From: an uncultured Methanobacteriaceae archaeon
GTDB taxonomy: Archaea; Methanobacteriota; Methanobacteria; Methanobacteriales; Methanobacteriaceae
DNA: 64,000 nucleotides
Direction of reading: 5' to 3'
Assembly (NCBI GenBank): GCA_963845285.1
Contig: CAWJRO010000016.1
Span: 53,908-117,907 of the forward strand
Shown: positions 5,298 to 38,016 of the stretch, piece by piece
Numbering within the stretch: the first letter of the stretch is position 1
Layout of the letters: the number at the start of each line of letters is the position of its first letter
Notes under the pieces: model-generated
What the model was told of the DNA's origin: nothing
Database searches by the model: none
The model's input: the letters and a program-made list of their open reading frames with translations, nothing else
Position numbers and translations under genes: made by a program

Positions 5298-5309
5298 TGT
5301 TGAATTTAA

Positions 5310-7074: not shown

Positions 7075-7374
7075 TTCAGTTTTAGTTTAAATATTTATTT
7101 TAATCCTAAAACCCACAAAACATTCCCTTTCTAATCATTGCCCCAAAAATTTTACTTCGTTAAATCCATATAACGAAGTAAATGTATATTCCAGGATAAC
7201 ATTTAAATACAGAACTTACTATATAAAACGCTCCCCCAATCCCACTCGTCCGATTTCTTTAGCCAGTAAAATTCAACTTATACGAATGTAAAAGAAAAAA
7301 AGCCAAAACTAAACTTTTTTTTACTATTCAACTTCAATTTTAAATGATTTTTATGAAAAATTGAATTTTAAAAT

Positions 7375-9105
7375 TTAAAACTTCCAGATATCCAGAGCTA
7401 TTTTTGCAAGTTCGGATGATCTATCTTGTATCTGTTTTTTACCCCATTCTCTTTGTTGAGACAAGTGACGATTTAATTTTAACCCACTATTTTTGAATCC
7501 ATTTGGCAAGTCCCTTTTTTCTTTAAATGTTTTATTAGAATATTCTTGGTTGTATCCAGTTAATGTTAAATTACCAATAGATTCCAAATGTTTATTCTGT
7601 ATAAATTCCCACTCTTCCCCCAAATCTTTTTTCCACTCTTTACTAATAACTTGAGGCATAATATGCTCAATTTGCATTTCACTTAATTTTACCATTTCTT
7701 TATTTTCAGGGTATCGTTCTATCTCTTCGAGTATGTATCTGAAAACTTTTTTGTAAGAAGTGCTTTCCTTTAGACACTTTCTAAACTCATTTTTCTCAGG
7801 CATACGTTGTGTTCCAGTTCCATTAGCTAATGTTTCTTTTAGAGATTGAGTTATATTAGATTTATCTAGTGACCCATATATTCTTGGGAAATATGAATTC
7901 AATGCATTTACTGGAATACCACAAACATTCCTCCTTACCACAAAAGTTTCAATTGCTTGTAAACAGTCAACAAAATCTTCTATAAAGAACTCTACATTTG
8001 GATTTTTATAATCATCATATAATTTAAGAAGCAGTGGATAAGCAGTAGTACTGTCGAGACGGTTAAATTTATCGAAATAAATTCTTAATGCATTTTCTTT
8101 CTCAGTTTTAGGGTACAAAAATTTACTATAATATTCAGCAAATCGCTTAAGTTTTTCCATTATCTTAATGACACCATCTTCAGTCATGGCATTTTTATCT
8201 AGAAACCCTTTAAATGTTGTGTATAATCTATTAAACGTTGGTAAGTTTCCATCCATAGCTAAATAATGTCTTATGAAACTATCCATTTTCTTGTCTCTGA
8301 CTTGCCTTTTACTTTCAGATTCTTTATCTCCCTCTATTAATGTATGCAAGGGTAACCATATGTTTTTATAAGATTTTTGCTGATTTTTTGGATTTAATTT
8401 CATAAATAAATAATTTCGAACTAGATCTGATTGGGTTAGTGGTACTCCTGTTCCGTTAAGGGTTTCAAATATTAAATAGGGATCATCATTTTCTTCCAAA
8501 GTGATATCAACAATTGAGAAATTAGATAAAATAGTATTTTTAATTAAGTCCAATCTTTCAATCTCATTTATTTCATTAAATTTTCCCTTAAAAAAGCTAT
8601 AAGTCTTGAAAATCCGGTTTTTTGATTCTTTGATCTCCTTTCCTTCCATAATACTAAAAAATATATTTCGATCGTTCTGAGTAGGTACTAATTTATATTT
8701 ATGATGTGGATGATGTTGATTCAGTAAGTAATAATCATCAATTTCAAACTTAGTTATGTGTTCTGGATTTAATTCTATTATCCTTTCCCTAATTGTAGCG
8801 AGTATAATATATATTGTGGTCAATCGTTGTTGTCCATCTACTACAGTAAACTCTGAAACAGTAGAAGCGCCCCCGTCTGTAAGCATCGTTACAAAAGAAC
8901 CAAAAAAGTGATGTTCCATTTTATAATAGTTAGTTTCTGTTTCTTGTATGTCCTCCCACAATCTTTCTAAATCTTTCTTCCCCCAAACGTATTCTCTTTG
9001 AAATAACGGGATTATGAATTGTTTACTTCCTTCTAAAAAGACTCGAATTTGAGTATCATTTGCTTTCATGTTCTTTCCCTCTAGATTTTTGAAATGCTTT
9101 CTCAT
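7375..9105 (-). CDS. GmrSD-like type IV (modification-dependent) restriction endonuclease, DUF262 + DUF1524 fusion
   Basis: The N-terminal ParB/DUF262 motifs FQREYVW and DGQQRLT are present. The C-terminal DUF1524 His-Me finger is present (EHIMPQ...W...HLESIGNLTL...N). 576 aa; the true start may be the internal MKANDTQI. Confidence 0.8.
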   Translation of the reverse strand: MRKHFKNLEGKNMKANDTQIRVFLEGSKQFIIPLFQREYVWGKKDLERLWEDIQETETNYYKMEHHFFGSFVTMLTDGGASTVSEFTVVDGQQRLTTIYIILATIRERIIELNPEHITKFEIDDYYLLNQHHPHHKYKLVPTQNDRNIFFSIMEGKEIKESKNRIFKTYSFFKGKFNEINEIERLDLIKNTILSNFSIVDITLEENDDPYLIFETLNGTGVPLTQSDLVRNYLFMKLNPKNQQKSYKNIWLPLHTLIEGDKESESKRQVRDKKMDSFIRHYLAMDGNLPTFNRLYTTFKGFLDKNAMTEDGVIKIMEKLKRFAEYYSKFLYPKTEKENALRIYFDKFNRLDSTTAYPLLLKLYDDYKNPNVEFFIEDFVDCLQAIETFVVRRNVCGIPVNALNSYFPRIYGSLDKSNITQSLKETLANGTGTQRMPEKNEFRKCLKESTSYKKVFRYILEEIERYPENKEMVKLSEMQIEHIMPQVISKEWKKDLGEEWEFIQNKHLESIGNLTLTGYNQEYSNKTFKEKRDLPNGFKNSGLKLNRHLSQQREWGKKQIQDRSSELAKIALDIWKF

Positions 9106-9361
9106 CTTAATTGTACTTCACTATTTTCATTAAAGAATGATTCCTCATTATTATTGTATTAAATAAATTTTAATATATAAAATAAATAGGATTTTGTAGA
9201 ATTGTAAAATCTTTTTTGAAAATGAGAGCAATAAGTAAAATATTTAGGCAAATTTTTTAAAAAACTAGGAAATAAAACTTTATACCTCGCTGAAATAATG
9301 ATAATGATTAATTAGAATACTTAATAAATTTTTTTAAAGTGAATGGGTTACCAATTTTATT

Positions 9362-10720
9362 GGCACTGTCAAAAACTTGGGGGTTGGGTGTTAAACAGTT
9401 TTTTCTGGTTTTGAATTTCTTTTCTAATGTTTATTCGTGACATTGCACCTGTTTTAATCTTCATTAACCTCTTAACACTTTTAGGAAAGGTTTTTTGAAA
9501 GCTATTCTCTATTCTGTTTGAAGTTCGTTCAATATTTCCATCTTCCAAGAATGCAAAGAAGGTTTTAAAATAAGGCACCAAAGAATCACAGATAATTGAT
9601 TGAATAACCTCTGAATAATCACTAATTTTACTTAAAATTTCGTTAAATTTCTTTCTAGCATTTTTAAAAGATTTACTCTCAAATAAACTGAATAATTCTA
9701 GTTTTTCTTTCCGTATTTTCTTTATTTCTTCTCTATTTAACTTATTTTCTCGGATATGTTTCTTTATGATTTTGTTAAAGTTTTTAAGTGTGTGAAAATA
9801 GCACCATTGGTGTTTAAACCCTAATTTTTCAATAATTGGTTTATATTTCTCATCTAAATCTGTAGTTATGGCAATTTTATTTTTATTCCTCGTATTTTGC
9901 CATAAAAACTCTTGTATATTCTTAGAATTCTCTTTAGAGTATATTTCATCAGCAACAATAATATCCTGTTTACTGTCGAATAAAGTGAATCTGTAATTCC
10001 ACACACCTTTAATTTTAACCCACTCCACATCAAAAATGTAATATCCTGAATAACGGTTTTTAGACTCGTTTTTATGGTTTTTATATCCCAGTATCCAGTT
10101 TTCAATTGTTTGTTGTGAAATATTGACTCCTGTGTCTTTTTTAACTTTATAAGCAATACTTCGCACTGATCCAAAGAATAAACCCACTAATTCAATACAT
10201 CTACTCTTAAAATCATGCGTGAAATTGCTATTATCCTCAACAACTTCCGAAATATCCGTATTGAATTTTTTACCACATTTTTTACATTTATAACTTTGAA
10301 TTTCTGTTTTAACAACGCCTTTATCATAAAAATAAAGTGTTCTTTCGTTAACTCCATTTTTAATCACAAATTTACTGAAACACTCCGGACAAAAAGGTTT
10401 AAACATCTCAATATGGAAAATATTCTTTTTAAACCATTTATGTAACGTTCTAGATACCTTATAATCATTTGGAAGTGATTTTAATTGGTTTTCAACATAT
10501 TTTGACAAATCTTCACAAAAGTAGGAAAGTTTATAACCTTGATCAAACAAACCATTAATTGGAGCAAGTGTTTTTCTTTTTAGCATAGAAAATACTATGC
10601 TCCCTCTTATTATAAAAGTTTTTAGGTTTTTGTTTTAGAAAATAATGGGTTTTAACAGGAATAGAAAAAATTGTTTATCGAAACACAAATTTCAAAACCC
10701 CCCAAGTTTTTGACAGTGTC
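9362..10720 (-). mobile_element. IS6-family insertion sequence with 8-bp target-site duplication
   Basis: Ends are GGCACTGTCAAAAACTTGGGGG (9362) and CCCCCAAGTTTTTGACAGTGTC (ends 10720), a ~22-bp TIR starting with the IS26-like GGCACTGT. The flanking direct repeat ATTTTATT (9354-9361 and 10721-10728) is an 8-bp TSD. Confidence 0.8.
9369..10586 (-). CDS. IS6-family DDE transposase with N-terminal zinc-finger extension
   Basis: The core motif D-x-E-W-V-K-I-K-G-x-W-x-Y (FDVEWVKIKGVWNYRF) matches the IS6 DETYVKIKGxWxYLYRAID signature. CxxC...CxxC zinc ribbon in the N-terminus. 405 aa. Confidence 0.75.
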   Translation of the reverse strand: MLKRKTLAPINGLFDQGYKLSYFCEDLSKYVENQLKSLPNDYKVSRTLHKWFKKNIFHIEMFKPFCPECFSKFVIKNGVNERTLYFYDKGVVKTEIQSYKCKKCGKKFNTDISEVVEDNSNFTHDFKSRCIELVGLFFGSVRSIAYKVKKDTGVNISQQTIENWILGYKNHKNESKNRYSGYYIFDVEWVKIKGVWNYRFTLFDSKQDIIVADEIYSKENSKNIQEFLWQNTRNKNKIAITTDLDEKYKPIIEKLGFKHQWCYFHTLKNFNKIIKKHIRENKLNREEIKKIRKEKLELFSLFESKSFKNARKKFNEILSKISDYSEVIQSIICDSLVPYFKTFFAFLEDGNIERTSNRIENSFQKTFPKSVKRLMKIKTGAMSRINIRKEIQNQKKLFNTQPPSF

Positions 10721-10929
10721 ATTTTATTTAAGTCCTCAAACTCTTTTTTTAAAAGTTGCTTTATAAATTTATATTACTCTATTTCTTTTAAATTAATTTT
10801 AATAATAAATCAAGATAAAAAAATATGTATAAACAAATGTAAAAGTGATATCATGTTAAAACAGGCACCTACTACTAAAAGAGATAAAAATTCGTTTATA
10901 ATGCATTTTTTGATATATCCGAAAAAAAT

Positions 10930-11139
10930 ATGAGTGAAACCCATTACAATCGTTTAAAATGGTATAATATCTATGATAATAGTAAAATTAATGTAAGTAT
11001 TAAGACCAATAGTACTTCTGGAGCTTTTATTGATGTTACTGTAAAATATACTCCGGAATTACCGCATGAACTTGATAAATTAATAGAAAAACATGAAAAA
11101 GAATTTCAGGAGTTTTATAAGGAGAGTATGAGTTATTAA
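10930..11139 (+). CDS. hypothetical protein
   Basis: 69-aa ORF between two IS elements. No recognisable domain. Confidence 0.3.
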   Translation: MSETHYNRLKWYNIYDNSKINVSIKTNSTSGAFIDVTVKYTPELPHELDKLIEKHEKEFQEFYKESMSY

Positions 11140-11350
11140 CCTTCAAAATTTCATAAAATGGTTTATAATCTTGATGATTTAATTAAGTAGATGACAAATT
11201 AAAATGAGTAAAAGCTGATCTAATCATTATATGTAAACTTCGTAATATAGAAGTTTAACGAAGTTAGATATTTTAGATATTTAATTTAAATATAAAACTC
11301 AAAAAAGTATATAAAAACCATCTAACATAGGTACTCGCAGGTGGTTAAAC

Positions 11351-11518
11351 ATGGAAAATGAACAAAAAATGAAACAAATGAACCTGAAACTAACAGAAAA
11401 ACAACTTGATCTTTTGGAACAGCTCTCAAATTCAATGGGAAATGTTAGTAAATCAGATCTAATTAGAATAGCCATAACAGAATATATTATGAAATATAAT
11501 GATTTGTTGAAAGCATAA
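11351..11518 (+). CDS. ribbon-helix-helix (CopG/Arc family) DNA-binding protein
   Basis: 55-aa ORF missing from the supplied track (shorter than 60 aa). Translation MENEQKMKQMNLKLTEKQLDLLEQLSNSMGNVSKSDLIRIAITEYIMKYNDLLKA gives a beta-strand followed by two helices. Its stop is 1 bp before the TSD of the adjacent IS. Confidence 0.6.
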   Translation: MENEQKMKQMNLKLTEKQLDLLEQLSNSMGNVSKSDLIRIAITEYIMKYNDLLKA

Positions 11519-11526
11519 ATATGAAA

Positions 11527-12773
<1,247 letters not shown>

Positions 12774-13128
12774 ATATGAAATAGATTAAATTATTCAATT
12801 TATCTTATTTTACCATTTTTAAATTTTTTTTTCTAATATGTTCATAATCGTCTACTTATTTTATAACATTTTAAAGAGTTTTTAGAGGAATTATAATCTT
12901 AAATAATATTTAACCTTTTTTTTATTGCTATTTAAAAACATAATCTTTATAAGGAATATAGTAATACAATTGAATTGTAAGTAAATCTTTTTAGAAGATA
13001 TTTACTTGCTAATAATTAATAGGAGGAATTTAAATGTAATAAAAGTCTTTCTAAGTTTTATCGAAGATCAGTTTTTATATTTAGTTAAATACCCCCATAA
13101 TTTTAACAAATTATATTGAAGGTGAATC

Positions 13129-16100
13129 ATGAATAAAACAAGAAAAGGTTTAATTTTTATGGGTTTTCTCATGTTATTGATCCTTGTCATGGGGCCTGTT
13201 TCGGCGGTTAGTTTGAATAGTAGTGATATGGCCTTGGCTTCTTCAGGTATTAAAAATTATACTGAAGCAAATGGTAATATCCCAAGTTATGTGGACGTTA
13301 ATGGTAAAAATAGTACAACACCTTCTTTTTTAAAAAGTTTAACCACATATACAGTGGAACTTAATTCAGGCTCAACTGCACCAGTAGATATAGCTACAGG
13401 TGTGAATACGGCTCCTAATCCTTCTGGATCGACAACAGGTAAAATTTATAAGGACGAATATGTTGACATGGCTAGCCGTGCTAGTAATTTTATAACTACA
13501 AATGGATATGCTCCAAATTATTCCAGAAGCAGCCTTGGAAATATACGTTATGAATCATTGGTCTATGCCTATTCAAAGATAATAAATTATTATGCCCTGA
13601 ACGGAGCCTTACCTAATTATGTAACAGTAGTTTGCTATTCCGGTACAAGTTCAACAGGTATAACCTTAGATAACATTCCACCTACTATAACCTGTGACCT
13701 TGCTCCAGGTACATATGACAATTTGAAAAATGTGACTTTAACAGCATCAGATAACATTGATATTAATCCTATAGTTTACTACAGCTCGGACAATGGTACA
13801 ACATGGAGTAACCAGGTTAAAACTGTTACATTAAATCTTAAATCAGGGTTAACCAATTTAAAGTACTATGCACAAGATGCATCAGGCAATATAGGTACAA
13901 CACAAACAGCAGTTTATACAATCAATTCAAACACAACCCCACCAACAACCCTCACAAATGAAGATTTACAGGATTTAGCAGGATCTGTGCAGTCCTACGT
14001 AGAAACAGTTCACCAGCTACCCGGCAACATGACCACATCAAATACAACAGTTAACATGTCCCAATTTTTAGAACTTGCAGCTACAGCAGTTACTAACATC
14101 AACAACAACGTAACTACATCAATCTCATTAGAGAACTATTATCCGGCGTCTAATCCCTTAGAAACCATAAAAAGCAATGGAAATCTTAATAAAACAGATT
14201 ATATAAATCTTGCAAGCAGTGTTAAAACTTTTATGGATTCTAATGGACGAGCACCAGATTACCAGACAATTAATTTGGGAAACATAAGATATGAATCATT
14301 AATATATACTTTCGCCCAGATTTTAAACTCCTACAAAGTAGCAAAGGTCTTACCAAATTTTGTTACAATCAGGCCTTGGACAACCATTGCAAACAACAGC
14401 ACCGTGTTTGTAACCATGGATCAGATAAGAAATGCAGCTGATACAGTACAATCTTACGTAGAAACCAATCATCAACTACCAGACCATGTAGTTATCTCTG
14501 AATCTGATGTCAGTATGCCACAATTCCTGAAACTCGAAACAACATACTTAACAAATGCCAATGACAACCTTTACCAATCTATTGTTCTGCAAAATTATGG
14601 TACAGCTTCCAACCCCTACGAAAGTATCACAGGCGGAAATCTTAACAAAACAGATTATTTGAGCGCTGCAAGTGCTTTAAACACATTTATGGATACTAAT
14701 GGATTTGCACCAAATTATAAAACAAGTATACGAGGTTATATCCGCTATGAATCCCTGGTTTACATGTACGCTGAAATAATTAACTCAGCAAGCGAAAATA
14801 CATGTTTACCCAACTATATTACCCTCACGCCATGGACAACTGTTACAAACACGAACACCGTATTTTTAACCATGAACCAAATAAAAACAGCATCATCATC
14901 TCTGAAACTCTATGTAGAATCCCATCATGCACTCCCAGCAAATGTAAACATTTCTGGAAGGCTAATAAGCACACCTCAATTCTTGAAACTTGAAATCTTA
15001 TCATTAAGAAATATTTACTCAAGATTGTACCAATCCATTGTTCTTGAAAGTTATAACGCAGCTTCTAATCCTTCTGAAACAGTAACAAGCGGAAAGATCA
15101 ACTATGAAAACTACATGACTGTTGCAGACAATATTGATTCTTTTATGAACTCCAATGGTCAGGCACCAAACTACGCACAAACTTCACAAGGTCAAATGCG
15201 TTTTGAATCCTTAGTTTACATGTACGCCCAGATCTTGAACTATTACAACATGAACAAAGAACTTCCAATTTATTTGACTGTTGATCCGTGGAGTGTTGTT
15301 TCAAATTCGAACACAGTAACATTCAACATAGATCAGATAATCAGTGGAGCCGAAACCGTAAAAACTTATGTGGAAACCAATCATGCACTTCCAAGCAGTA
15401 TAACTGTATCAGGAACCACTTTAAGCATGCCACAGTTTCTGAGACTTGCAACCACAACGCTACACAATATAAACAAAGATTACGTAGGGCAGATCGTCCT
15501 ACAAAATTATAACTTGCCAACAGACACATCAGAAACCCTCACAGGCGGAAATTTCAACAAAACAGAATATTTAGATCTTGCAATGAAAGTTGAGTACTTC
15601 ATGTACAACAATGGGCGAGCACCCAACTTCCAAAATAGTACTCTTGGAAACATACGCTACCAATCATTAATCTACATGTACAGTCAAATTTTAAGCTCTT
15701 ACAAAGCAAATAATTACACACTACCCGAATTTATCACAATAAAACCATGGACAACCGTTTCAAACACAAACACAGTGTTCTTAAACACAGAACAATTAGA
15801 AAACGCAACAAAAACTTTGAAACAATATGTAGAAACCAATCACACACTTCCAAGTAATGTAACAGTTTCAGGAGTTCAAGTAACCATGCCACAGTTTTTA
15901 GAACTTCTAAATCAAGCTGTGGTAAATATAAACGGAAAGTTAAATGCAACAATTATTCTGGGAAACTACAATACAGCTTCCAACCCATCAGAAACAGTAA
16001 CAGGAGGAAATCTTAACACTACAACTTACATCAACCTTGCAAACGATATAATCAAATCCATGAATTCCAATGGTAAAGCACCTGATTATCAGACAACCAG

Positions 16101-19100
16101 TATTGGAAACATACGTTTTGAATCTTTGGTCTACACTTATTCCTTAATATTAGTCTACTACAATGAAAATGGAAATTTACCTGAAAATATCACCGTAACT
16201 CCATGGTCAACCATATCCAATACAAACACAAGCTTTTTCACAGTAAAACAGTTAGAAGATGCAGCAAAAACAGTACAAAATTATGTGGAAACTAACCATC
16301 AATTACCAAACACTGTTACAATCTCTGGAACTAATGTTAACATGTCTGAGTTCCTACAGATGGCAACTGCAGCAGTTTTAAACATAGACGATTCTTTATA
16401 CACATCAATTGCGCTTAAAAATTCAAGTATAGCTTCCAACCCCTCAGAAACCATCACAAAACAAGGAAACATTAACCAATCAGATTACACAAACTTGGCA
16501 AGCAACATAATCAGTTATATGAACTCTAATGGAAAAGCACCCGATTATCAAACAACTAACATTGGAAATATTAGATATGAAACTCTTGTTTACATGTACA
16601 GTCAGATATTAAGTTCTTACAATGCAACAAGTACACTACCGCAGTTTGTCACTGTAAATCAATGGACTGTTGTTTCAAATTCAAGCACGGTGTTTGTAAC
16701 AGCAGACGAGATAAAAAATGCATCTGAAACTCTCAAACAATATGTGGAAACCAATCATCAACTTCCAAGCAGCGTCAACATCTCAGGAAGACAAATAACA
16801 GTGCCACAGTTCCTTAAACTCTCAACTAACTCAGTTATAAACATTGAAAGCTACCTGAATACCTCAATAATTTTAGGCAATGTTGGAGCACCAAACAGTA
16901 ATTCAACAGAAAATATAACAATCGGAACAATAGATAACGACGAATTCGTGGACATAGCAACCACAATAAACACATATATAAATTCCAACGGAACGGTACC
17001 AAACAATGTTTCAAACACCAGTTTAGGAAGCAATATAGGCTATGAATCCCTTGTTTACATGTTTGCTAAGATCATGACATATTATAATGCAACAGAACAT
17101 GCCCCAGATAAGGTTTCGGTTGTGCCATGGATTGCAATGTCCAATCCAAATGGAACCTTCAACTTCAGAACCCATGAAACATACAATAGCATACAAACAG
17201 CTTTAGATGACGCAGACACAGTAAGCGGTGACACAATATGGCTAGAAAAAAATAACTACTCAGAAAACGTAGTAATAAACAAAAAAATTACCATAAAACC
17301 CCTATCAGGAAACGTAACAATCCAAGCTTTAAACCTTAACCTACCCATCTTCACAATAAATGAAGGTGGAAACGGCACAACAATACAGGACCTCATCATA
17401 AACGGTTCCACAAACAACATTGCCATATATATCAACAGCTCCACAGCCAACCAGATCTTGGGAAACAACATAACAAACAGCAGTAATGGCATATACTTGT
17501 ACAACTCTACAGAAACCGTAATATCCGGAAACAACATATTAAACAATCTAAACGGCGTACTCATCACTACAGGATCTGAAAATGAGGTATCCAGCAACAA
17601 AATAACCTCAAACAACTTTGCAGGAATCAAAATCCAAAATTCTACTAATAACAAAATTTACAGTAACAACTTATCCAATAACCAAGACGGAATCCGTCTA
17701 GAAAGCTCTTCAGCAGAGATTCACTTCAACAGCATAGTGGGAAACAGCAGATACAGATTATACAGTGAAAGTAACAGTACAGTTAACGCAACCAACAACT
17801 GGTGGGGCTCTAATAATCCAAATACATCCTTAAATAATCCAACTGATATTTACAATGCTGGAGGAACCGTAAACTACAACCCATGGTTAGTACTTTCTAT
17901 AAACGGACTCACAGATCGCTCAGACCGCAACAGCACATATTACAACTACATTATAACTGCAGACGTAACCCACAACAACCAGGGAAACGACACATCGCCA
18001 GATGGCAGTATACCTGATGATACACCAATCAACTTTAACTCAACCTTGGGAACACTTAACAGCACAGGATCCACCAAAAAAGGTAAAGTAGAACTCAAAC
18101 TTACCAACACAACAGCAGGAACAGCAGATGTTTCAGCAACCATCAATAACCAAACAGTTGCCACAACAATCAACGTAACAAACGTTAACGTACTGGGAGT
18201 GTACAACACCAGAACTCACGAAAGCTTCGCCACCATACAAGCAGCTATAGATAATGTTGACACCCATGACGGGGACATTTTAACATTAAACGAAGGAAAG
18301 TACACAGAAAATGTTGCTGTTAACAAGAAACTCACCATACAACCAGTTACAGGAGCGAACGTAACAGTTAATGCAAAAGACTCAGATAAAAGCGTTTTCG
18401 TAATAAACAACGAAGGAAGCGGATCAACAATACAAGGACTCAACATAATCAGCTCTGGAGACTCATACGGCATATCCTTAAGCCATTCATATAACAACAA
18501 TATCAACAACAACACCACATCTAACGGTAACAGGGGAATTTACGTATACACATCAGGAAACAACATCATAACAGAAAACATCATAAAAGAGGGTTACTAT
18601 GGAATAGTTCTCTACAACTCAACTAACAACAACTTATCAGGAAACACCGTGAAATACAATGAAAATGGAATATACCTTTTTAACTCCAATTACAACACAA
18701 TAAATGGAAATACAATATCTGACAATTATTATGGAAGCTACTTTTACCATTCCAATAACAACAAAATAAGTGAAAACAAATTAAAAGGTAACTGGGTAGG
18801 TATTTACCTTTATGATACCCACAACAACAGCGTAACTGGAAACAACCTCACAGACAACGGGGCTGGAATCACCTATTATAACTCTCTCAGCACCACAATC
18901 TCCGGAAACAATTTCACAAACAACTGGCTTACAGATACATCAATCATAGATTCTGGTAAAATGGTGATGGCCACTACCACTTACAGTTGCGGACCTGCAG
19001 CCCTAGCAACAATCCTAAAAAGCTTGGGAATTTACACCACAGAAGCTGAAATCGCCAAATTAGCAGGAACAGACGAAACAGGGACCAGTCTCTACGGACT

Positions 19101-19911
19101 GAAAACAGCAGCACAAAATAAGGGAACAACCGCAATAGGAGCAAAATTAACCATAGATCAACTTAAACCCAATTACATTGTAGTTCTAACCATAAATAAT
19201 GTCAAACACTTCGAAGTTGTACAGAACATAACTAACACCACAATTTACCTCTTCGACCCAAACCTTGGAAACATAGAAATGTCAATAACAAAATTCAATG
19301 AGATCTACACAGGAGTAGCACTCCTAATCAATGAACAACCACCAGCAAATACCACAACATTAACTGATGATGAAATGAAGAACATCAAAGGAAACTGGCA
19401 TTATATAACAATTAGAAATTCTTATTGGGTACCGGGTTATTGTTATATAACCTGGAAAAGAGTAACGGGTAGTTTTCTTGTACCATACGTCTACGTAACA
19501 TGGGTGCCAACTTACAACTGGGGTCCAATCCATTTAGGATATTATGCAGCTCATATAGGTTGGTATAGGGTAACCTATGGATTTTCAATACCAATAGTTC
19601 ACTACGTACCTGGTCACAGAGCATATTACTATACTTACATAAAAGTTCCGGATTATAATGACGTACCTCAAGTCAAGCAGTCTTATAAATGGGAAGGAAC
19701 AGCTATAGTCAAAAAACGTATTTACTATAGTAAATACATAATTGGAGGAAGTATAGGAATTTATGGTACTTTATTGGCCCCGTTAGCTGGTAAAGGCATA
19801 GTTGGTCTAGGTGGAGGTGCTTTTGGAATTGATGGACTTTGGACAGGTTTAAATGAATATGCATCACATTTAAATGAAATTGGCTCACAAGGATGGATAG
19901 ATCCAAAATAA
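13129..19911 (+). CDS. giant adhesin-like surface protein: signal peptide, ~9 pseudomurein-binding-type repeats, parallel beta-helix repeats, C39-like cysteine peptidase domain
   Basis: 2260 aa with an N-terminal signal peptide. About nine ~150-aa repeats (…QSYVETNHQLP…MPQFL…ASNPSET…GNIRYESLVYMY…), typical of Methanobacteriales adhesin-like proteins. Between 17.2 and 18.9 kb there are PbH1-type NNxxxxNxxGI(Y/V)L repeats. A C39-like block has SCGPAALATIL...Cys and HFEVV His. A Tyr/Trp-rich C-terminus follows. An upstream purine-rich GAAGGTGA motif and TATA-like box are present. Confidence 0.85.
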   Translation: MNKTRKGLIFMGFLMLLILVMGPVSAVSLNSSDMALASSGIKNYTEANGNIPSYVDVNGKNSTTPSFLKSLTTYTVELNSGSTAPVDIATGVNTAPNPSGSTTGKIYKDEYVDMASRASNFITTNGYAPNYSRSSLGNIRYESLVYAYSKIINYYALNGALPNYVTVVCYSGTSSTGITLDNIPPTITCDLAPGTYDNLKNVTLTASDNIDINPIVYYSSDNGTTWSNQVKTVTLNLKSGLTNLKYYAQDASGNIGTTQTAVYTINSNTTPPTTLTNEDLQDLAGSVQSYVETVHQLPGNMTTSNTTVNMSQFLELAATAVTNINNNVTTSISLENYYPASNPLETIKSNGNLNKTDYINLASSVKTFMDSNGRAPDYQTINLGNIRYESLIYTFAQILNSYKVAKVLPNFVTIRPWTTIANNSTVFVTMDQIRNAADTVQSYVETNHQLPDHVVISESDVSMPQFLKLETTYLTNANDNLYQSIVLQNYGTASNPYESITGGNLNKTDYLSAASALNTFMDTNGFAPNYKTSIRGYIRYESLVYMYAEIINSASENTCLPNYITLTPWTTVTNTNTVFLTMNQIKTASSSLKLYVESHHALPANVNISGRLISTPQFLKLEILSLRNIYSRLYQSIVLESYNAASNPSETVTSGKINYENYMTVADNIDSFMNSNGQAPNYAQTSQGQMRFESLVYMYAQILNYYNMNKELPIYLTVDPWSVVSNSNTVTFNIDQIISGAETVKTYVETNHALPSSITVSGTTLSMPQFLRLATTTLHNINKDYVGQIVLQNYNLPTDTSETLTGGNFNKTEYLDLAMKVEYFMYNNGRAPNFQNSTLGNIRYQSLIYMYSQILSSYKANNYTLPEFITIKPWTTVSNTNTVFLNTEQLENATKTLKQYVETNHTLPSNVTVSGVQVTMPQFLELLNQAVVNINGKLNATIILGNYNTASNPSETVTGGNLNTTTYINLANDIIKSMNSNGKAPDYQTTSIGNIRFESLVYTYSLILVYYNENGNLPENITVTPWSTISNTNTSFFTVKQLEDAAKTVQNYVETNHQLPNTVTISGTNVNMSEFLQMATAAVLNIDDSLYTSIALKNSSIASNPSETITKQGNINQSDYTNLASNIISYMNSNGKAPDYQTTNIGNIRYETLVYMYSQILSSYNATSTLPQFVTVNQWTVVSNSSTVFVTADEIKNASETLKQYVETNHQLPSSVNISGRQITVPQFLKLSTNSVINIESYLNTSIILGNVGAPNSNSTENITIGTIDNDEFVDIATTINTYINSNGTVPNNVSNTSLGSNIGYESLVYMFAKIMTYYNATEHAPDKVSVVPWIAMSNPNGTFNFRTHETYNSIQTALDDADTVSGDTIWLEKNNYSENVVINKKITIKPLSGNVTIQALNLNLPIFTINEGGNGTTIQDLIINGSTNNIAIYINSSTANQILGNNITNSSNGIYLYNSTETVISGNNILNNLNGVLITTGSENEVSSNKITSNNFAGIKIQNSTNNKIYSNNLSNNQDGIRLESSSAEIHFNSIVGNSRYRLYSESNSTVNATNNWWGSNNPNTSLNNPTDIYNAGGTVNYNPWLVLSINGLTDRSDRNSTYYNYIITADVTHNNQGNDTSPDGSIPDDTPINFNSTLGTLNSTGSTKKGKVELKLTNTTAGTADVSATINNQTVATTINVTNVNVLGVYNTRTHESFATIQAAIDNVDTHDGDILTLNEGKYTENVAVNKKLTIQPVTGANVTVNAKDSDKSVFVINNEGSGSTIQGLNIISSGDSYGISLSHSYNNNINNNTTSNGNRGIYVYTSGNNIITENIIKEGYYGIVLYNSTNNNLSGNTVKYNENGIYLFNSNYNTINGNTISDNYYGSYFYHSNNNKISENKLKGNWVGIYLYDTHNNSVTGNNLTDNGAGITYYNSLSTTISGNNFTNNWLTDTSIIDSGKMVMATTTYSCGPAALATILKSLGIYTTEAEIAKLAGTDETGTSLYGLKTAAQNKGTTAIGAKLTIDQLKPNYIVVLTINNVKHFEVVQNITNTTIYLFDPNLGNIEMSITKFNEIYTGVALLINEQPPANTTTLTDDEMKNIKGNWHYITIRNSYWVPGYCYITWKRVTGSFLVPYVYVTWVPTYNWGPIHLGYYAAHIGWYRVTYGFSIPIVHYVPGHRAYYYTYIKVPDYNDVPQVKQSYKWEGTAIVKKRIYYSKYIIGGSIGIYGTLLAPLAGKGIVGLGGGAFGIDGLWTGLNEYASHLNEIGSQGWIDPK

Positions 19912-19963
19912 TTAGGATTTATTTATTTTTTTATTTTTTTTAAGGTATAGGAGATGGTTTATA

Positions 19964-20293
19964 GTGTTAAATGTGAAAAATAGGGTATTGTTATGGATTC
20001 TTTTGTTGGTAGTGTGTTTGATAAACTTTTTTAGTTCTAAAATTATGATTTTTGCAAATGGTGCTTTAATGATTTGTGCGATATCTTTCATTATTTTGGA
20101 TTCTGTGGATGAAAATTATCATGGAAAATTATCAATGGGAATTGCTTTTTTACTTTTATTATATGTTTTAATTTGGATTTTACTGAATAAAATAACTGCA
20201 GAAGTGTTAATTGCTTTAATAATTTTGGTTTTTTATATAATTATCAGGATCTTAATGTTTTTAGATATAATTCCAAAAAATATTTTAAATTAA
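19964..20293 (+). CDS. small membrane protein (hypothetical)
   Basis: 109-aa ORF with 3 predicted TM helices, immediately downstream of the adhesin gene. A GGAG motif is upstream. Confidence 0.4.
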   Translation: MLNVKNRVLLWILLLVVCLINFFSSKIMIFANGALMICAISFIILDSVDENYHGKLSMGIAFLLLLYVLIWILLNKITAEVLIALIILVFYIIIRILMFLDIIPKNILN

Positions 20294-20847
20294 TTAACGT
20301 TCTAGGGGATATATTTCCTTATATTTTTTCTTTTTCTTCTTTTCCAAGTGTGGAACAAGAAAAAAAATTTCTACAAACGGATTGAAAAAAATCCATTTCA
20401 GATTCCATATCCGTTTTCTGTTACACCAAATGTCTTATTTTAACAACATTGAATTTATTAACATTAAACGGAAAAGGATAGATTAATACACATCTAAAAC
20501 CAAATAATCAGATAGATCTAGTTAAATAAAAGGTAAAAATGTGATTAATATTAAAGATCATAAAAGTATGTTTATAGGACATGTAAAGTAAAGAAAAAAG
20601 TTCTATCTATAAATTATAAAACAAATTATATTTAATAATAACTTTTAAGACAGTTTTAAATTTGAGATAAACTTAAAAATTTAAAAGTATTATGGAGACC
20701 TTCATGAAAATATTAAAATTGTAAGTATTGAAATATCAAATGTGAATTTACCAATTGAAATTCCATTTAAAAAGTGTAGATTCATTCAGTTTACACCAAT
20801 GACTAAAAAAAAGTTGTAGATTTAATTTTATACAAGGATCTTATCCC

Positions 20848-22800
20848 TTGAAAAATGGTGATCTTGTGCGTCCACCATACTTACCAATAGTACCCGAAAA
20901 AATTCCAGAAACATCCTATTTACTGGCATTATACGCCTTAATAGGCGTGGTCCTATTAATAGCCTACGGCATTATTGGATCCACTTATATAATGGATTTA
21001 GATCCGATCAATGCCCTTTATTTCACTGTACAGACCATAGCAACCGTGGGTTTTGGTGATATCAAACCTATAACTCCTATCCAAAAGATTTTTACCGTGA
21101 CTCTGGTTCTTGGAGGAGTAGGATTACTTGCATACGCATTTACATTAACAATAACGGTGGTTACAATGGCAGTTGAAGAAATCACATCTGGCGCTAAACA
21201 AAGGCGACTGATAGCCGCTACAAAAGACCATTTCGTCCTCTGCGGCTATGGAAGAGTAGGTGGCGCTGTCCATAAAGAGCTTAAAAAAAGAAATAGAAAT
21301 GTAATAATAATTGAAAGGAATAAAGACATAGTTGAAAAGGAGTTATGGGAAGATCCTGATGTTCTGGCCATTCCTGGCGATGCCACAGATGAAAACGTGA
21401 TGATAGAATCAGGTATAAAAAAAGCCCGTGGAGTTATAATAACAACAGGAGACGATGTTGACAACCTTTTCATAACATTAACAGCAAGGGAGCTGCATCC
21501 TGAGATATGGATAGTCACAAGGGCCAGTAAAAAGGAGAATATCCGCAGATTATACCGTTCAGGTGCTGATAAGGTCATATCCCCCGAGGCAAGTGGAGCT
21601 GAAGATATTTATTTTGCTGCAATGGAACCCACCATAATGAAGATCACCGAGATACACGGTGTTGCAGATATAAAAAAGGAAGCAGAGATCATCCTGAAAC
21701 ACGGCTGCACCCTTGAAAACATAGAGTACCATCTGCCTGAATTCAAGGAACCTCTTGCAAGAAAGATTGGAGTGTCCAAAATAAACCAACTGAACAGATT
21801 TTTAAGCAGTTTAGAACGTGACATAAACCGAAAAAAATCTTTAGAGAAAATATATGAATCTGTAAGTGGAATTCACTCCCACTGGATCTCAGGACCTACA
21901 AAAGAAAGTTTGGATAAAGTTGCTGAGGAACTTAAAAAAGAGGGATTTTTACTTGGCATCAACCTCAATGAAGAAGAGATAAAAGATGCTGTGAAAAAGC
22001 ATGGAAAACTCGTTGAGGTGGTCTTAAAACCTGAGATGAAGATCACAGAAATCCACGATGTTACAGACATACGGGAAGAAGCTGAAGTCATTCTGAAACA
22101 CGGCTGCACCCTTGAAAACATAGAATATTACCTACCCGGGTTCCATGAACCATTAAAAAGAAAGGTTGGTCTTTCAGAGGTAAATGACATGGACAGGTTT
22201 TTAAAACATTTAAATCAGGATTCTGCACGAATGGATGCTCTTGAAAGACTTTACACAATTTCAGGAGGGGGAATTCATTCACACAAGATCTCCGGGCCAG
22301 ACACCAAAAGTCTCGATAAAATCGAATTTGAATTAACTAAAAAAGGATTTCTTTTAGGTTTGAACCTCTCGCACAATGAGATACTGGAGAAAATTCGGGA
22401 GTATGGAAGGGTCAGTGAAATGCTCATGAAACATGATGTCGGCATTATCGATGACAAACGTGTGATAGTAGAGTTAGGCGGTCGAGTACTCGATTCAAAA
22501 CATTATCTTCCAGGTGTAAGACAGGTTGTAACCAGAAAACTCTATTTGAAAAATAAGGAAGATCTTAAAAGGTGTGAAGAGGAGTACAACAAACCCGATG
22601 CAAGAAGGTCTTTAACAGCCCTCTATGAAATATCGCGACACATACATTCCCATACAATTTCAGCTCCAGATGTTAAGACCATTAAAAAGATAGAAAAAGC
22701 TCTTGATAAACAGAGCATACTTTTAGGTGTTGATCTGCCCGAAGATGAAATATGGAAAATCGTTGAAAGTGAGAATTCCAAAGAATTCTGTGTGGAATAA
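20848..22800 (+). CDS. MthK-like K+ channel: 2TM pore (TVGFGD) + RCK/TrkA-N domain + three tandem ~125-aa repeats of an unknown domain
   Basis: M1-P-M2 with selectivity filter TVGFGD. Rossmann motif [12 protein letters not shown]. The C-terminal half carries three copies of a module with conserved [22 protein letters not shown] and GFLLG-NL segments. The first two copies are also near-identical at the DNA level (around 21690 and 22085). Confidence 0.8.
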
Positions 22801-22910
22801 TTCCATATTTCTTGGTTATTCTTATTTTTAAAAAATCCACTTTAAAAAATCAGTTCTCATTGATAATATAGGAATATAAAACTTTAATTGTAAATTTCTT
22901 GAAAATTTAA

Positions 22911-24671
22911 GAGGCTGTCTCATGATTGACTTTTTTTTGGATTTTCTTTTCTGATTTTTTTCCTTTTAAGGGTTATATTTATATTTAAGGTGTTACTATA
23001 TTTTATTTAGAGATTTATAGTTTTTTGGTGGTGTTTTTTATGGCTTTGAGAGAAGATAGGATTGGTCAGACTTGGTTGGTGCCTAGGCGTGTTATGGATT
23101 TTATTCCGGAAAATCATATTTGTTATTTTATTGCTAATTTGGTGGAAGAGTTAGATTTTAAAAAAATAGACCAGAGATACAGGTGCACTAAGGGTAAGGC
23201 AGCTTATTCTCGCCGAATGTTATTGAGAGTGGTTATTATGGCTTCGGTTGATGGTGTGTTTTCATCTAGGCGGGTTGCAAGGCTTGCGGAGGAAAATGTG
23301 ATTTATATGTATCTTTCAGGTATGGATAAGCCGGATTTCCATACAATTTGCAGATTTAAAATCGAATGCAGCAAACAAATTGAAGAAGCGTTTGAAATGA
23401 CTGTGAATGTTGCTAAAAATATGGATATGGTTCAATTGAACCATATCGCAATAGATGGTACTAAAATCAAAGCTAACGCTTCCCCAGCTAATCTAATTAA
23501 TCAAAAAGAAATACATACAGTTCGTCAGATATTAAAAAAAGGAATAAAAACCGACAAGAAAGAAAACAAAATTTACGGCAATAAAAGAGGTGACGAAATA
23601 CCACCAGAACTAACCAACCGTAAAAAAGTCCACGAAATAATCCAAAAACTAAAAAACCAAACCAAAACCACTAATGAAAATAATGCTCCTAAAGAGGAGA
23701 ATAAGCTGCATAGATCTTCAGTTAAGCTTCTGGAACGGGCCTGTTCCGGTAGTCCGGAAAAGGATCGTGTTTTGAAAAAATTGGATCATGCTGAAAGGGA
23801 GTTAGAAAAGACACCACAAAAGACTGTTAGTTTAACAGACCCTGAATCACGGTGGATGATGAATAAAAAGAATCGAATGGAACTTTCATATAATATGCAA
23901 ATCGCAGTGGATTATGATTCAGGAATCATACTCGCCAGCACCATAACACAAGACCCTACAGACCACCACCAACTAATACCACAAATAGAACAAATACAAG
24001 AAACAATAGGACCCTTACCCAATTATACAAAGATTAGCGCAGATAACGGGTATTTTACACAAACAAATCTACAATATCTAGAAGAAAATGGATTAGATGG
24101 TTACATACCTAACAGAAAACAGGCACATAAACATAAAAACAAGTTAAAAAAGGATAAACTATTTTCCAAGTACAATTTCAAATATAATCATGTCGAAGAC
24201 ATTTATATTTGTCCAAATAACAGAAAATTAACTTATAAAAAGACATATGAGTATAATAACACTTGTATGCGCCAATATTATTGTAATGATTGTTTAAAAT
24301 GTTCATATCAGACATTATGTGCTGGTAAGAATCGTTTTAGGATTATAACTGATTATGGTGGTGTTTTATCAAAGCGTATGGCTTTGAAAATGGAAACAAA
24401 TCAAGGCAAGGAAGAGTTTGGTAAACGAAAACAGACCGTTGAATGGCCATTTGGGAATATAAAAGAGAATTTAAGATACACAGAGTTCCTAACACGCGGC
24501 ATGAACGGAATAAAAACAGAAAAAAACCTAATTAACATCTCACATAACATAAAAAGAATCTATAATCATAATAATTCTAAAATAAATAGGCAAAATCAAA
24601 TAAATACCTGAAAAAAGAGGATTTTTTATAAAAACTTAAAAAATTAAAAACTTAATTCATGAGACAACCTC
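22911..24671 (+). mobile_element. IS element copy B (IS5/IS1182-like, 1761 bp)
   Basis: Left TIR GAGGCTGTCTCATGATTGAC at 22911. Right end TCATGAGACAACCTC at 24671. Identical to copy C over its whole length. Confidence 0.85.
23025..24611 (+). CDS. DDE transposase (DUF772 N-terminal domain, IS5/IS1182-like), copy B
   Basis: 528 aa. [15 protein letters not shown]...[10 protein letters not shown]... with C-terminal DDE and CxxC region. Confidence 0.85.
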
Positions 24672-24723
24672 TTTAAAAATAAAAAAATATTAAAAATAGA
24701 AAAATGTAGGTATTAAAGAATAC

Positions 24724-28383: not shown

Positions 28384-28869
28384 TTAATCTTCCTCAAGGA
28401 AACTAAATATACCTGTTATAACCAACCAGATACCTATTAATATTCCTAGATATATTGGGCTGAAGGCGTAGGTTCCAAGTATTATGTAAATGATACCAAG
28501 GATGATTCCTAAAACTCCACCCCATACTCTATGTTTCTGTTCCATTCCTCCAAGCAGTGAAATTACACCTGCTATAACCATCAGGATACCTGCAAGGTAA
28601 AGTACAATTCCTGATATAAAGCTGATTAAAGCTGGATTGAAAATTAATGCAAATGCAAATATCAGTGCTATAATTCCAAGTATCACGTACAATATTCCAA
28701 CTGTTTTACTTGATTCCATCTCCATTATACCTGCAAGCAGGAACCAAATTGCCAGTATCAGCACTGCAAATCCTGCAAGAACACTGACTGCGACTACACC
28801 AGCAAGTGGGAATGCAATGATTATGAGACCTAATATTATAGCTATAAGACCTGTAACCATATTTTTCAT
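28384..28869 (-). CDS. HdeD/DUF308 family membrane protein
   Basis: 161 aa with six short TM segments and internal repeats. Paralogue of the ORF at 38017-38511. Confidence 0.6.
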   Translation of the reverse strand: MKNMVTGLIAIILGLIIIAFPLAGVVAVSVLAGFAVLILAIWFLLAGIMEMESSKTVGILYVILGIIALIFAFALIFNPALISFISGIVLYLAGILMVIAGVISLLGGMEQKHRVWGGVLGIILGIIYIILGTYAFSPIYLGILIGIWLVITGIFSFLEED

Positions 28870-32606: not shown

Positions 32607-34040
32607 ATGATGGGATACTTAAGAAAGAAGGATTTTTTTTTAATATTTAAGAATCTGGGAACAGTAATGGAAGGTATAGGGGTCATTGTGCTCATACCTC
32701 TGATTGTAGCTTTGATCTACAACGAACGCACTTATTTAAGTTTCCTTTTGCCTTCTTTATTTTCACTAATTATTGGATACACCTTAAGAAAATTTTTTCC
32801 AGGTACCGGTAACTTAAGGCTCAAACACGGCATGATAATAGCAGCCTTAGCCTGGCTGTGGGCAGCATTTATTGGAAGCCTTTGCCTCATATACTCGACA
32901 GATATGAGTTTTCTGCATGCATACTTCGAGAGCATGTCTGCATGGACAGGAAGCGGATTCACAATGTACACAAACGTTGAAATACTTCCAAAATCCATAC
33001 TATTTTTAAGAAGCCTCGAACAATGGGTTGGGGGTCTTGGAGTTGTAATTTTAGTTATAGGCATACTTATAAGACCCGGAACTGCTGCTGCAAGGTTGTA
33101 CAAAGCAGAAGCACGTGAAGAAAAGATAAAACCCAGCATAGTAAACACAGTCAAAACAATATGGTGGATATACCTTTTTTACACAGTCCTGGGAATAGTT
33201 TTATATGTGGCTGCAGGTATGTCCATTTTCGACGCCATAAACAACTGCTTCACCAACCTTTCAACTGGTGGTATGTCCATCAAAAATAACAACATTGGAG
33301 CTTACAACAGCAACATCATAACTATGATAACAATCGTACTGATGACCATAGGAGGTACAAGCTTCCTTGTGCATTACAAAGCAATTAAAGGCAAAGCAAT
33401 TGATGTATTTAAAGATATACAATTTCAGGCAATGATCGTGTTGGTTTCAATTTTTTCAATACTTCTTTTTGTAAATGCACATTTCACATCTCTTAACTCT
33501 GTTTTTTACGTTGTATCCGCCATGAGCTGTACCGGTTCAAACACTTTACCTGTCAGTGCAATGGCTGCATGGGGAGACTATGCAAAGGTGATACTTGCTA
33601 TCTGTATGATTATTGGTATGGCAGCAGGTTCCACATCCGGTGCCATAAAACTCATAAGGATTGTAACCCTCTTTAAAGGTATTTACTGGGAGATCATGAA
33701 GATTGTATCCCCTGAAGGCACTGTTATACGAAGAAAAATATCTGGAAAGTCTGTTACAGATGCAGAGATAAAAGAGGCAGGAAGCTATACATTTTTATAC
33801 TTGCTCTTCATATTCATTACGTGGCTCATTTTCATGCAATATGGATACGGTGGAGTGGACTCCCTCTTTGAGATCACATCTGCACAGGGAAATGTAGGGC
33901 TATCTGTAGGAATTACAGGCCCCACAATGCCTTCCATCCCAGAGATATTCCTCATATTCAGCATGTGGATTGGAAGAATCGAGATCATTCCGGCACTGGT
34001 TCTGTTTAAGGTTGGAATAGATCTATTCAAAAGATTTTAA
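32607..34040 (+). CDS. trkH: Trk/Ktr-type K+ uptake transporter membrane subunit
   Basis: 477 aa polytopic protein with four M-P-M repeats and the glycine-containing pore motifs (TGGMS, GNVGLS) typical of TrkH/KtrB. Confidence 0.85.
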   Translation: MMGYLRKKDFFLIFKNLGTVMEGIGVIVLIPLIVALIYNERTYLSFLLPSLFSLIIGYTLRKFFPGTGNLRLKHGMIIAALAWLWAAFIGSLCLIYSTDMSFLHAYFESMSAWTGSGFTMYTNVEILPKSILFLRSLEQWVGGLGVVILVIGILIRPGTAAARLYKAEAREEKIKPSIVNTVKTIWWIYLFYTVLGIVLYVAAGMSIFDAINNCFTNLSTGGMSIKNNNIGAYNSNIITMITIVLMTIGGTSFLVHYKAIKGKAIDVFKDIQFQAMIVLVSIFSILLFVNAHFTSLNSVFYVVSAMSCTGSNTLPVSAMAAWGDYAKVILAICMIIGMAAGSTSGAIKLIRIVTLFKGIYWEIMKIVSPEGTVIRRKISGKSVTDAEIKEAGSYTFLYLLFIFITWLIFMQYGYGGVDSLFEITSAQGNVGLSVGITGPTMPSIPEIFLIFSMWIGRIEIIPALVLFKVGIDLFKRF

Positions 34041-34134: not shown

Positions 34135-34794
34135 GTGAATATTATGTATGTAGTTATAATGGGCGGCGGAAGGGTAGGACTGCGCCTTGCTTCCTCATTA
34201 GTCACAGCAGGGATCGATGTCACCCTCATTGAAAACGATTCAAGTTTATGTGGTAATGCGGCTGCTGAACTTGATGCACTCGTTATCTGTGGAAACGGAA
34301 CCGATGTAAAAACTCTTGAAGAGGCCAATATAAGCGATGCAGATGTTTTCGTAGCAGCCACAGGAAATGATGAAGTTAATTTACTCTCATGTATCCTTGT
34401 CAAGGATTACAATATCAAAAAAGTTATTGCAAGAGTCAGCAACCCCGACCATGAAGAAGCATTCAAAAAGGTGGGTATAGATGACGTTATAAGCCCAGAA
34501 CTTACAGCTGCAAGTTACCTTGAAAAGCTCATAACCAGACCAAAAATAGCAGACCTGGTAGTTATCGGGAAGGGAAATGCAGAGATCCTGGACATAAGAG
34601 TTACAAATAACAAAGTTGTCAACAAGAAAATAGGAGAGTTAAGCCCAACAGACAATTATATAATAGCTGCGATATACAAAAACGGTGAAATAAATATTCC
34701 AAAAGAAGATATGATGCTGACACTCGGCGATAGAATATTTGTTCTCGTGAAAAATCCTGCAGTGAAGGCAACTGCTAAACTTTTCACCAAATAA
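34135..34794 (+). CDS. trkA: Trk system NAD-binding subunit (RCK N + C domains)
   Basis: [14 protein letters not shown] Rossmann motif plus a TrkA-C domain. 219 aa. Immediately downstream of trkH. Confidence 0.85.
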
Positions 34795-36061: not shown

Positions 36062-36151
36062 TTTAGTTTCTATGAGCCTGGTTTCTATTTTTTTGATACT
36101 TCTTTCCAATTTTAGAAAAAAGGAATTATTTCACTGTTTTATCTAGAAAAA

Positions 36152-37912: not shown

Positions 37913-38016
37913 GAAAAAATAATAAAAAAATAATAATTTTTATATGTTCTAATCATCAAAATTATCTACTATAAAAACATGGGGTTATCGGGACCATCTT
38001 TGATGGGGGGGATTGA

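Follow-up and report, generated by a model that had tools for sequence, protein, structure and literature searches.

A two-transmembrane K+ channel of Methanobacteriaceae with three tandem 3H domains in place of the RCK-C lobe

The K+ channel MthK, as Jiang et al. 2002 are said to have described, has a second translation start at M107, and the soluble product of this start reportedly completes an octameric gating ring. KtrA and TrkA are separate soluble transporter subunits that carry an RCK-C lobe, which in some members of the family is the site for cyclic di-AMP (c-di-AMP). Within KtrA, residues R16, D36 and E125 bind ATP through its phosphates and its ribose, and also the divalent cation bridging two ATPs (PMC6957272). 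Niacin is bound in B. halodurans NiaR with its ring in a hydrophobic pocket and its carboxylate held by H83 and a Zn ion, for which E91, H150 and H152 are the ligands (PMC7713382). The effector-binding domain of NiaR, a repressor responsive to niacin, is a 3H domain. Passages of a 2008 paper (PMC2330245) that cite Anantharaman et al. 2001 mention this domain as fused to TrkA-module proteins and name 2-phosphoglycerate kinase as another of its carriers. The 3H domain has been in Pfam and the literature since 2001, and the feature reported below is in that sense already known. We analyzed a 64,000-nucleotide stretch of DNA (hereafter the window) from an uncultured Methanobacteriaceae archaeon (contig CAWJRO010000016.1, positions 53,908 to 117,907). 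At 20848..22800 the window encodes a K+ channel subunit in which an RCK-N Rossmann domain is followed by three tandem repeats, which a preliminary description of the same DNA had presented as an uncharacterised module.

The triple repeat as a 3H domain of the NiaR type

The channel gene was intact. Positions 20848..22800 form one uninterrupted open reading frame (ORF) on the plus strand, which also carries all features of the channel given below. This ORF begins with TTG 20848 and encodes 650 amino acids (aa), and residue numbers throughout refer to it. The three tandem repeats noticed earlier were confirmed, with repeat 1 (R1) at 21631..22029 (residues 262-394), repeat 2 (R2) at 22030..22428 (residues 395-527) and repeat 3 (R3) at 22429..22797 (residues 528-650). 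An IHSH motif occurs once in each repeat, its HSH beginning at 343, 477 and 600.

We compared the repeats with Pfam and with proteins of known structure. The Pfam search matched the channel to the 3H domain PF02829 over three stretches, with 198.9 bits against a 25-bit cut-off (E 1.3e-59); the best stretch in R1 was 269-368. R2 was delimited by Pfam, repeat alignment and ligand mapping, and the more divergent R3 by repeat alignment and ligand mapping. A hidden Markov model (HMM) built for this analysis scored the three copies at 173, 172 and 143 bits and detected no further 3H copy and no second 3H gene within the 64-kb window. When a single repeat was searched against the PDB with phmmer, it matched T. 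maritima NiaR (9EBR/1J5Y, E ~4e-5) and, more weakly, B. halodurans NiaR (7CV0, E 0.11). An AlphaFold2 (AF2) model of residues 255-650 reached a predicted local distance difference test score (pLDDT) of 82.4, and its only Foldseek matches in the PDB at E <= 1e-3 were 1J5Y (2.7e-6), 7CV0 and 9EBR, all of them NiaR. NiaR was thus the only significant fold. These results indicate that the triple repeat is the catalogued 3H domain of the NiaR effector-binding type. The module is not uncharacterised, since it has a profile match to a described ligand-binding domain and crystal structures of NiaR (1J5Y, 7CV0/7CV2, 9EBR) to compare it with.

Relative to NiaR, each repeat contains an insertion of 5-6 residues that splits the second helix. 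Each 3H domain is also followed by a strand-helix extension of ~30 residues (G-F/L-L-L-G-x-N/D-L..., GFLLGINL... in R1), which is shared by channels with a single 3H domain and not by NiaR or kinase-linked 3H domains. The insertion and the extension are the reason why a unit of ~130 aa had been delimited, against 97 aa for the Pfam domain. The motifs that had been called strictly conserved were so in R1 and R2, and not in R3, which has SILLGVDL for GFLLGxNL.

We then located in the repeats the residues with which B. halodurans NiaR binds metal and niacin. The predicted counterparts of H83, E91, H150 and H152 are H270, E278, H343 and H345 in R1, and H403, E411, H477 and H479 in R2. In R3 they are H529, D536 (Asp for Glu), H600 and H602. 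All 12 predicted ligands were invariant in two sets of sequences, one of 25 Methanobacterium orthologues and one of eight sequences that includes Methanothermobacter orthologues at 61-64% identity. The HxH of the repeats aligns with two metal-coordinating histidines of NiaR (PMC7713382), which makes the earlier suggestion of a metal- or small-ligand-binding module very probable. The inclusion of the conserved Cys in this site is not supported, as C287 and C420 align with V100 of B. halodurans NiaR, a non-ligand residue.

We also compared the niacin pocket, taking M88, L92, V105, Y112', L119, F130, M134, L141 and L142 of B. halodurans NiaR as the reference. R1 and R2 have a similar hydrophobic residue at seven of the nine positions, namely I275/I408, I292/I425, F299/F432, I307/V440, F318/F451, L322/L455 and I335/L468.

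The age of the triplication was assessed from the similarity among the repeats. R1 and R2 were 56% identical in protein and 62.6% identical in DNA over aligned codons, and R3 was 33-39% identical to either of them. The best ungapped DNA repeat in the gene was 169 nt at 74%, and Tandem Repeats Finder reported no array inside the channel gene. The three-repeat architecture was also present in the Methanothermobacter orthologues, so that the triplication is older than the split between Methanobacterium and Methanothermobacter. Judged by these alignments, the duplication is ancient and not recent, in contrast to the near-identity at the DNA level and the recent duplication that had been proposed. 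A recent duplication or an assembly artefact was ruled out by the low DNA identity and the cross-genus architecture. The repeated antisense ORFs pointed out earlier do occur (21609-21824 and 21873-22121, with the same opening residues) and are by-products of the repeat; we rejected them as genes, as they are short mirror images of it without support.

Pore, RCK-N domain and translation starts

The N-terminal half of the protein was assigned by Pfam to Ion_trans_2 at residues 36-106 (E 7e-12, 45.5 bits against a cut-off of 22.5) and to TrkA_N at residues 129-246 (E 1.9e-33, 115.7 bits against a cut-off of 23.8). The 2-TM (two-transmembrane) pore domain lies at 20908..21189, and the AF2 model of this region has helices at 21-47 (TM1), 53-66 (pore helix) and 77-114 (TM2). 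Within it, the selectivity filter TVGFGD (21043-21060, residues 66-71) is intact; the filter reads GFGD or GYGD among orthologues. The RCK-N (TrkA-N) Rossmann domain follows at 21226..21597 (residues ~127-250). These results agree with the earlier assignment of the protein to the RCK-type 2-TM K+ channels with a TVGFGD pore and an RCK-N Rossmann domain.

The RCK-C lobe was absent, as had also been recognised. No Pfam match to TrkA_C was found in the channel protein even at E <= 1, and the three-copy module stands in its place: in the AF2 model a single helix (251-262) is followed directly by the first 3H domain at ~262. We considered the possibility that the repeat region is a disguised TrkA-C and rejected it, because the region has no TrkA_C profile match and the fold search gives NiaR, not RCK-C.

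To place the channel among the known RCK proteins, we examined its closest structures. The PDB sequence matches for residues 14-252 were GsuK, MthK and KtrA, and residues 14-247 aligned with residues 7-232 of MthK (E 2.5e-23). By sequence, the Rossmann domain matched RCK2 of GsuK best among PDB entries (E 4e-24), and it aligned with KtrA too. The full-length AF2 model (pLDDT 80) had MthK and GsuK as its top Foldseek matches. In the channel, the places of the MthK Ca2+ ligands D184, E210 and E212 are taken by T199, R225 and S227. The Ca2+ site is therefore not conserved, and Ca2+ gating of the MthK kind is not expected. The label 'MthK-like' given to the protein earlier is thus right as regards the pore and Rossmann fold and wrong as regards the Ca2+ ligands. 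The KtrA residues R16, D36 and E125 align with R136, E156 and E247, all invariant in the two orthologue sets, and the domain contains the motif GYGRVGG (G133-Y-G-R136-V-G138). The KtrA-type residues and this motif point to a nucleotide-dependent RCK-N as the most likely case.

The main start of the channel gene was examined in 29 orthologous loci. The results showed that the position of V7 is occupied only by ATG, GTG or TTG, and that it is preceded by a 3-nt spacer and the Shine-Dalgarno (SD) sequence GGTGAT (GGTGAT/GGTGATT in most loci), with no conservation farther upstream. In the window the SD lies at 20857..20862, and its bases would be read as the codons N-G-D in the 650-aa ORF. The start-only codons at V7, the conserved SD and the unconserved sequence above it indicate that the true main start is probably GTG 20866, and not TTG 20848 as first assigned. 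The coding sequence of the channel subunit would accordingly run from 20866 to 22800 and encode 644 aa.

A putative second start was found at Met107. Upstream of its ATG (21166-21168) stands GGTGG (21156-21160), with the spacing seen between the main start and its SD, and Met107 was invariant. We aligned the codons of 26 orthologous genes and analyzed their four-fold degenerate sites, 195 in number. Across these sites the major allele had a mean frequency of 0.62, and G was the commonest base at only 5.6% of them. Just two of the 195 sites were fully conserved; both are G, occupy the third position in codons 103 and 104, and together create GGTG. In Methanothermobacter residue 103 is Ser or Ala, yet the DNA reads tcG GTG GTT ACA ATG or gcG GTG GTT GCC ATG. 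The conserved GGTG and Met107 suggest an internal ribosome-binding site (RBS) that would give a putative soluble protein of 544 aa, consisting of RCK-N and the three 3H domains. Met107 was not accepted as the exact equivalent of M107 in MthK, since the same number is coincidental and MthK M107 aligns with R119. Most orthologues have a Met at 121, but this codon is CTG (Leu) in the window, and the evidence of a conserved RBS applies to Met107 alone. What the present analysis adds is small, namely the correction of the start codon and the conserved internal start.

Proposed working and alternative explanations

We consider it probable that a nucleotide at RCK-N and a metal-dependent small ligand at the 3H domains together gate this K+ channel. 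The subunits would form a tetrameric 2-TM K+ pore of the RCK-regulated class (MthK, GsuK, Kch), with its inner gate under a cytoplasmic assembly of RCK-N and 3H domains. RCK-N would bind an adenine nucleotide (ATP/ADP or NAD(H), nicotinamide adenine dinucleotide) and form a gating ring below the pore. In each 3H domain a bound divalent metal would assist the binding of a small anionic or aromatic metabolite, as in NiaR, and occupancy would alter the conformation of the ring and thereby the degree to which the inner gate opens. R1 and R2 may pair as an intramolecular pseudo-dimer, with a Phe (F299/F432) at the place of Tyr112' from the partner subunit of NiaR, while R3, with its polar conserved pocket, may sense another thing or serve assembly. 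Translation from Met107 would supply RCK-N and 3H in soluble form, and this product would join the tethered domains in the assembly, as is said of the M107 product of MthK.

Several observations weigh against this proposal. The arrangement of the domains is uncertain in the AF2 models, with predicted template-modelling scores (pTM) of 0.47 and 0.58, and the pseudo-dimer and the ring geometry are predicted only. Nucleotide binding is proposed solely on the GxGxxG motif and the alignment of three residues, and the conservation of GGTG could in principle reflect another constraint at the nucleotide level. The niacin pocket is kept only partly in R1 and R2: L92 is replaced by A/S, and L141 by K/R/S in R1 (residue 334) and by the invariant R467 in R2. 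In R3 the pocket is not conserved, most of its positions being replaced by a polar, conserved set (K537, S550, C576 and Y580). A literature search for '3H domain' together with potassium channel, ion channel or RCK found no such report, and experiments on any 3H-bearing channel were not found in the searchable literature.

In an extended form of the proposal, a metabolite would gate the channel through up to 24 metal-containing 3H sites (four tethered and four soluble subunits with three sites each) in addition to the nucleotide at RCK-N; we regard this form as unlikely. One candidate ligand is a pyridine carboxylate of the NAD pathway, which fits the conserved divergent pairing of the channel gene with nnr. 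Another is an anion of the phosphoglycerate type, in keeping with the 3H domain carried by 2-phosphoglycerate-kinase-like proteins and with the Arg that is invariant in the R2 pocket. If true, either ligand would represent a gating mode undescribed for any K+ channel, and K+ homeostasis of methanogens would be tied to central metabolism. A link between cyclic 2,3-diphosphoglycerate (cDPG) and K+ through 2-phosphoglycerate kinase-3H has a low probability, because cDPG is reported from (hyper)thermophilic methanogens and the organism studied here is a relative of the mesophilic M. paludis.

Other explanations were weighed against the same evidence. The repeats are real, contain conserved His and replace RCK-C, as would be expected of a previously undescribed domain that arose by recent internal duplication and acts as a new kind of gating sensor. 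This explanation is nevertheless almost certainly wrong, given the PF02829 match, the agreement with NiaR in sequence and fold, the name '3H domain-containing protein' that orthologues already bear at NCBI, and the fusions of 3H to TrkA modules in the cited passages of PMC2330245. The low DNA identity of R1 and R2 and the architecture common to Methanothermobacter also contradict it. It is improbable, too, that the 3H domains sense free divalent metal (Ni2+, Zn2+ or Co2+), with the metal itself gating the channel as Ca2+ does in MthK. The complete invariant His/acid/His-x-His set in each repeat is consistent with such a sensor, and another cation site could have replaced the missing Ca2+ site of MthK. 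Moreover, crystals of NiaR contained Ni in the case of T. maritima and Zn in that of B. halodurans, and loss of the metal (H152A) abolishes NiaR function (PMC7713382). However, the metal serves NiaR as a cofactor at full occupancy, niacin being the signal (PMC7713382), and R1 and R2 keep the hydrophobic pocket beside the metal, which a pure metal sensor would not need.

The 3H domains might instead be mainly structural, serving as metal-stabilised scaffolds that replace RCK-C in ring assembly and leave the nucleotide at RCK-N as the sole signal. All KtrA-type residues for the nucleotide and its cofactor are in place and invariant, the NiaR-type pocket is lost in R3, and the channel-specific beta-alpha extension after each 3H domain suggests a role in assembly. 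On the other hand, the invariance of the twelve ligand residues and most pocket residues across two genera exceeds what a scaffold needs, and 3H is elsewhere the effector-binding domain of NiaR, so that we judge a purely structural role unlikely. Finally, the ligand could be niacin or another metabolite of the NAD pathway, which would couple K+ flux to NAD status. Homology to the niacin site of NiaR, the largely kept pocket of R1 and R2 and a Rossmann domain of the dinucleotide-binding type agree with this. So does the position of nnr, a bifunctional gene for the repair of NAD(P)HX (NAD(P)H hydrate), which is the divergent neighbour of the channel gene in 28 of 31 Methanobacteriaceae loci and also in Methanothermobacter. 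Against it, this synteny lies within one family and may be inherited, and in the window an insertion has moved nnr 17 kb away. Two pocket positions differ, with the invariant R467 or Lys/Arg/Ser at 334 added, and 3H is also found on P-loop kinases unrelated to NAD. This specific identification of the ligand is quite unlikely in our estimation.

As a sequence feature the channel is ordinary: it is an orthologue in an annotated family, and each of the three domains that make it up is catalogued already. What value remains to it is that of a target for experiments. The sequence offers handles in the His-x-His motifs, the residues of the KtrA-type nucleotide site and the internal start. M. thermautotrophicus, the source organism of MthK, has the family too, and its channels have, in our assessment, proved tractable. 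The identity of the ligand would show how K+ flux is tied to metabolism in methanogens and what archaeal 3H domains do, the bacterial case of NiaR being the only one understood.

Distribution, genomic neighbourhood and comparison with known systems

The distribution of the channel was determined from its relatives and from matches to the repeat region. The protein was 95% identical to a protein of Methanobacterium paludis that bears the name '3H domain-containing protein', and more than 120 full-length relatives (71-95% identity) had the same three Pfam domains. The gene was present in 30 species-level genomes labelled Methanobacterium, Methanobacteriaceae or, in one case, Methanobacteriota, and also in Methanothermobacter tenebrarum and M. 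thermautotrophicus. The repeat region had only 51 matches in a library of 1.84 billion representatives. They consisted of a single cluster of full-length triple-3H proteins, of fragments, of several single-3H channels ~365-391 aa long, and of one P-loop kinase with a C-terminal 3H domain. Because channels with Ion_trans_2, TrkA_N and one 3H domain exist, 3H recurrently occupies the position of RCK-C.

The gene order in both genera was argG(+), nnr (YjeF_N + Carb_kinase)(-), channel(+), ftr(-), LPG_synthase_TM(-) and Metallophos_2(-), with trkH and trkA farther on. In the window, the gene for the K+ transporter TrkH (32607-34040, +) and the trkA gene (TrkA_N + TrkA_C; 34135-34794, +) lie ~10 kb downstream of the channel. 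The trkH/trkA pair is also near the channel in the Methanothermobacter loci L031, L033 and L034, so the neighbourhood of K+-transport genes is conserved.

In the window, an insertion of ~17 kb with mobile and defence genes lies between nnr (1781-3292, -) and the channel gene, and it has left the latter untouched. The GC content of the insertion (3400-20500) was 31.3%, against 33% for the whole window. It contains a phage-type integrase (3677-4654), DDE/IS66-like transposases (5437-7017, 9369-10586 and 11540-12193) and a GmrSD restriction endonuclease (7375-9105). A giant secreted surface protein of 2260 aa is encoded at 13129-19911 (+), with many pseudomurein-binding repeats (PMBR), NosD/beta-helix repeats and, close to its C-terminus, a Peptidase_C39 domain (residues 1944-2070). 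It is unusual for a C39 peptidase of the bacteriocin-processing type to be combined with a pseudomurein-binding, adhesin-like protein. Between this gene and the channel lies a very hydrophobic ORF of 109 aa (19964-20293, +) with about three predicted TM segments and no Pfam match. It probably belongs to the inserted region, because it was absent from the syntenic loci examined.

An insertion sequence (IS) element of ~1.79 kb is present in two copies (22909-24693 and 36150-37936) that are 99.7% identical and encode a 528-aa DDE transposase (DUF772 + DDE_Tnp_1_6). Its terminal inverted repeats are approximately AAGAGGCTGTCTCATGA / TCATGAGACAACCTCTT. The first copy begins 109 nt past the stop codon of the channel, between channel and ftr, and a diverged relative lies at ~6210-6967 (75% over 773 nt). 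Two paralogous DUF308 membrane proteins of 160 and 164 aa are encoded at 28384-28869 (-) and 38017-38511 (+), the second directly after the second IS copy.

We finally compared the channel with the described systems. MthK (M. thermautotrophicus; 1LNQ, 6OLY), its best fold match, shares the 2-TM pore, a TVG(Y/F)GD filter and the RCK Rossmann domain, and an internal start near the end of TM2 is likely in the channel also. The channel differs from MthK in the absence of the Ca2+ ligands, in a GxGxxG motif that MthK does not have, and in three 3H domains where MthK has the RCK C-lobe; Met107 of the channel is found 12 residues upstream of the residue aligned with M107 of MthK. KtrA, TrkA and GsuK share GxGRxG, the acidic residue that ends beta-2 and the intra-dimer Glu (R136, E156 and E247 in the channel). 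GsuK differs in having two full RCK domains per subunit, and none of the three has a 3H domain.

NiaR/YrxA (1J5Y, 7CV0, 7CV2, 9EBR) has the same Pfam domain and fold, the four ligand residues found in each repeat, and a pocket that R1 and R2 largely keep. In contrast to NiaR, the channel lacks a domain of the winged-helix type for binding DNA: the Pfam search found no helix-turn-helix (HTH) domain in it, and its N-terminus is the pore. It also has three tandem copies of 3H instead of one, a channel instead of a promoter as its output, and a different pocket in R3.

The single-3H K+ channels (~365-391 aa; P0126, P0136, P0139, P0147 and P0151) have the same order of Ion_trans_2, TrkA_N and 3H and the same extension after 3H, with one 3H domain instead of three. 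Two of them, P0147 and P0151, have degenerate filters (CSGYGY and TGVGCANP) and keep the TrkA_N domain and the 3H histidines, which suggests non-selective or non-conducting members of a wider family. The P-loop kinase-3H proteins (NCBIfam PRK12338; P0142) are soluble enzymes, unlike the channel, and the kinase-linked 3H domain shares 39% identity with a part of the repeat region.

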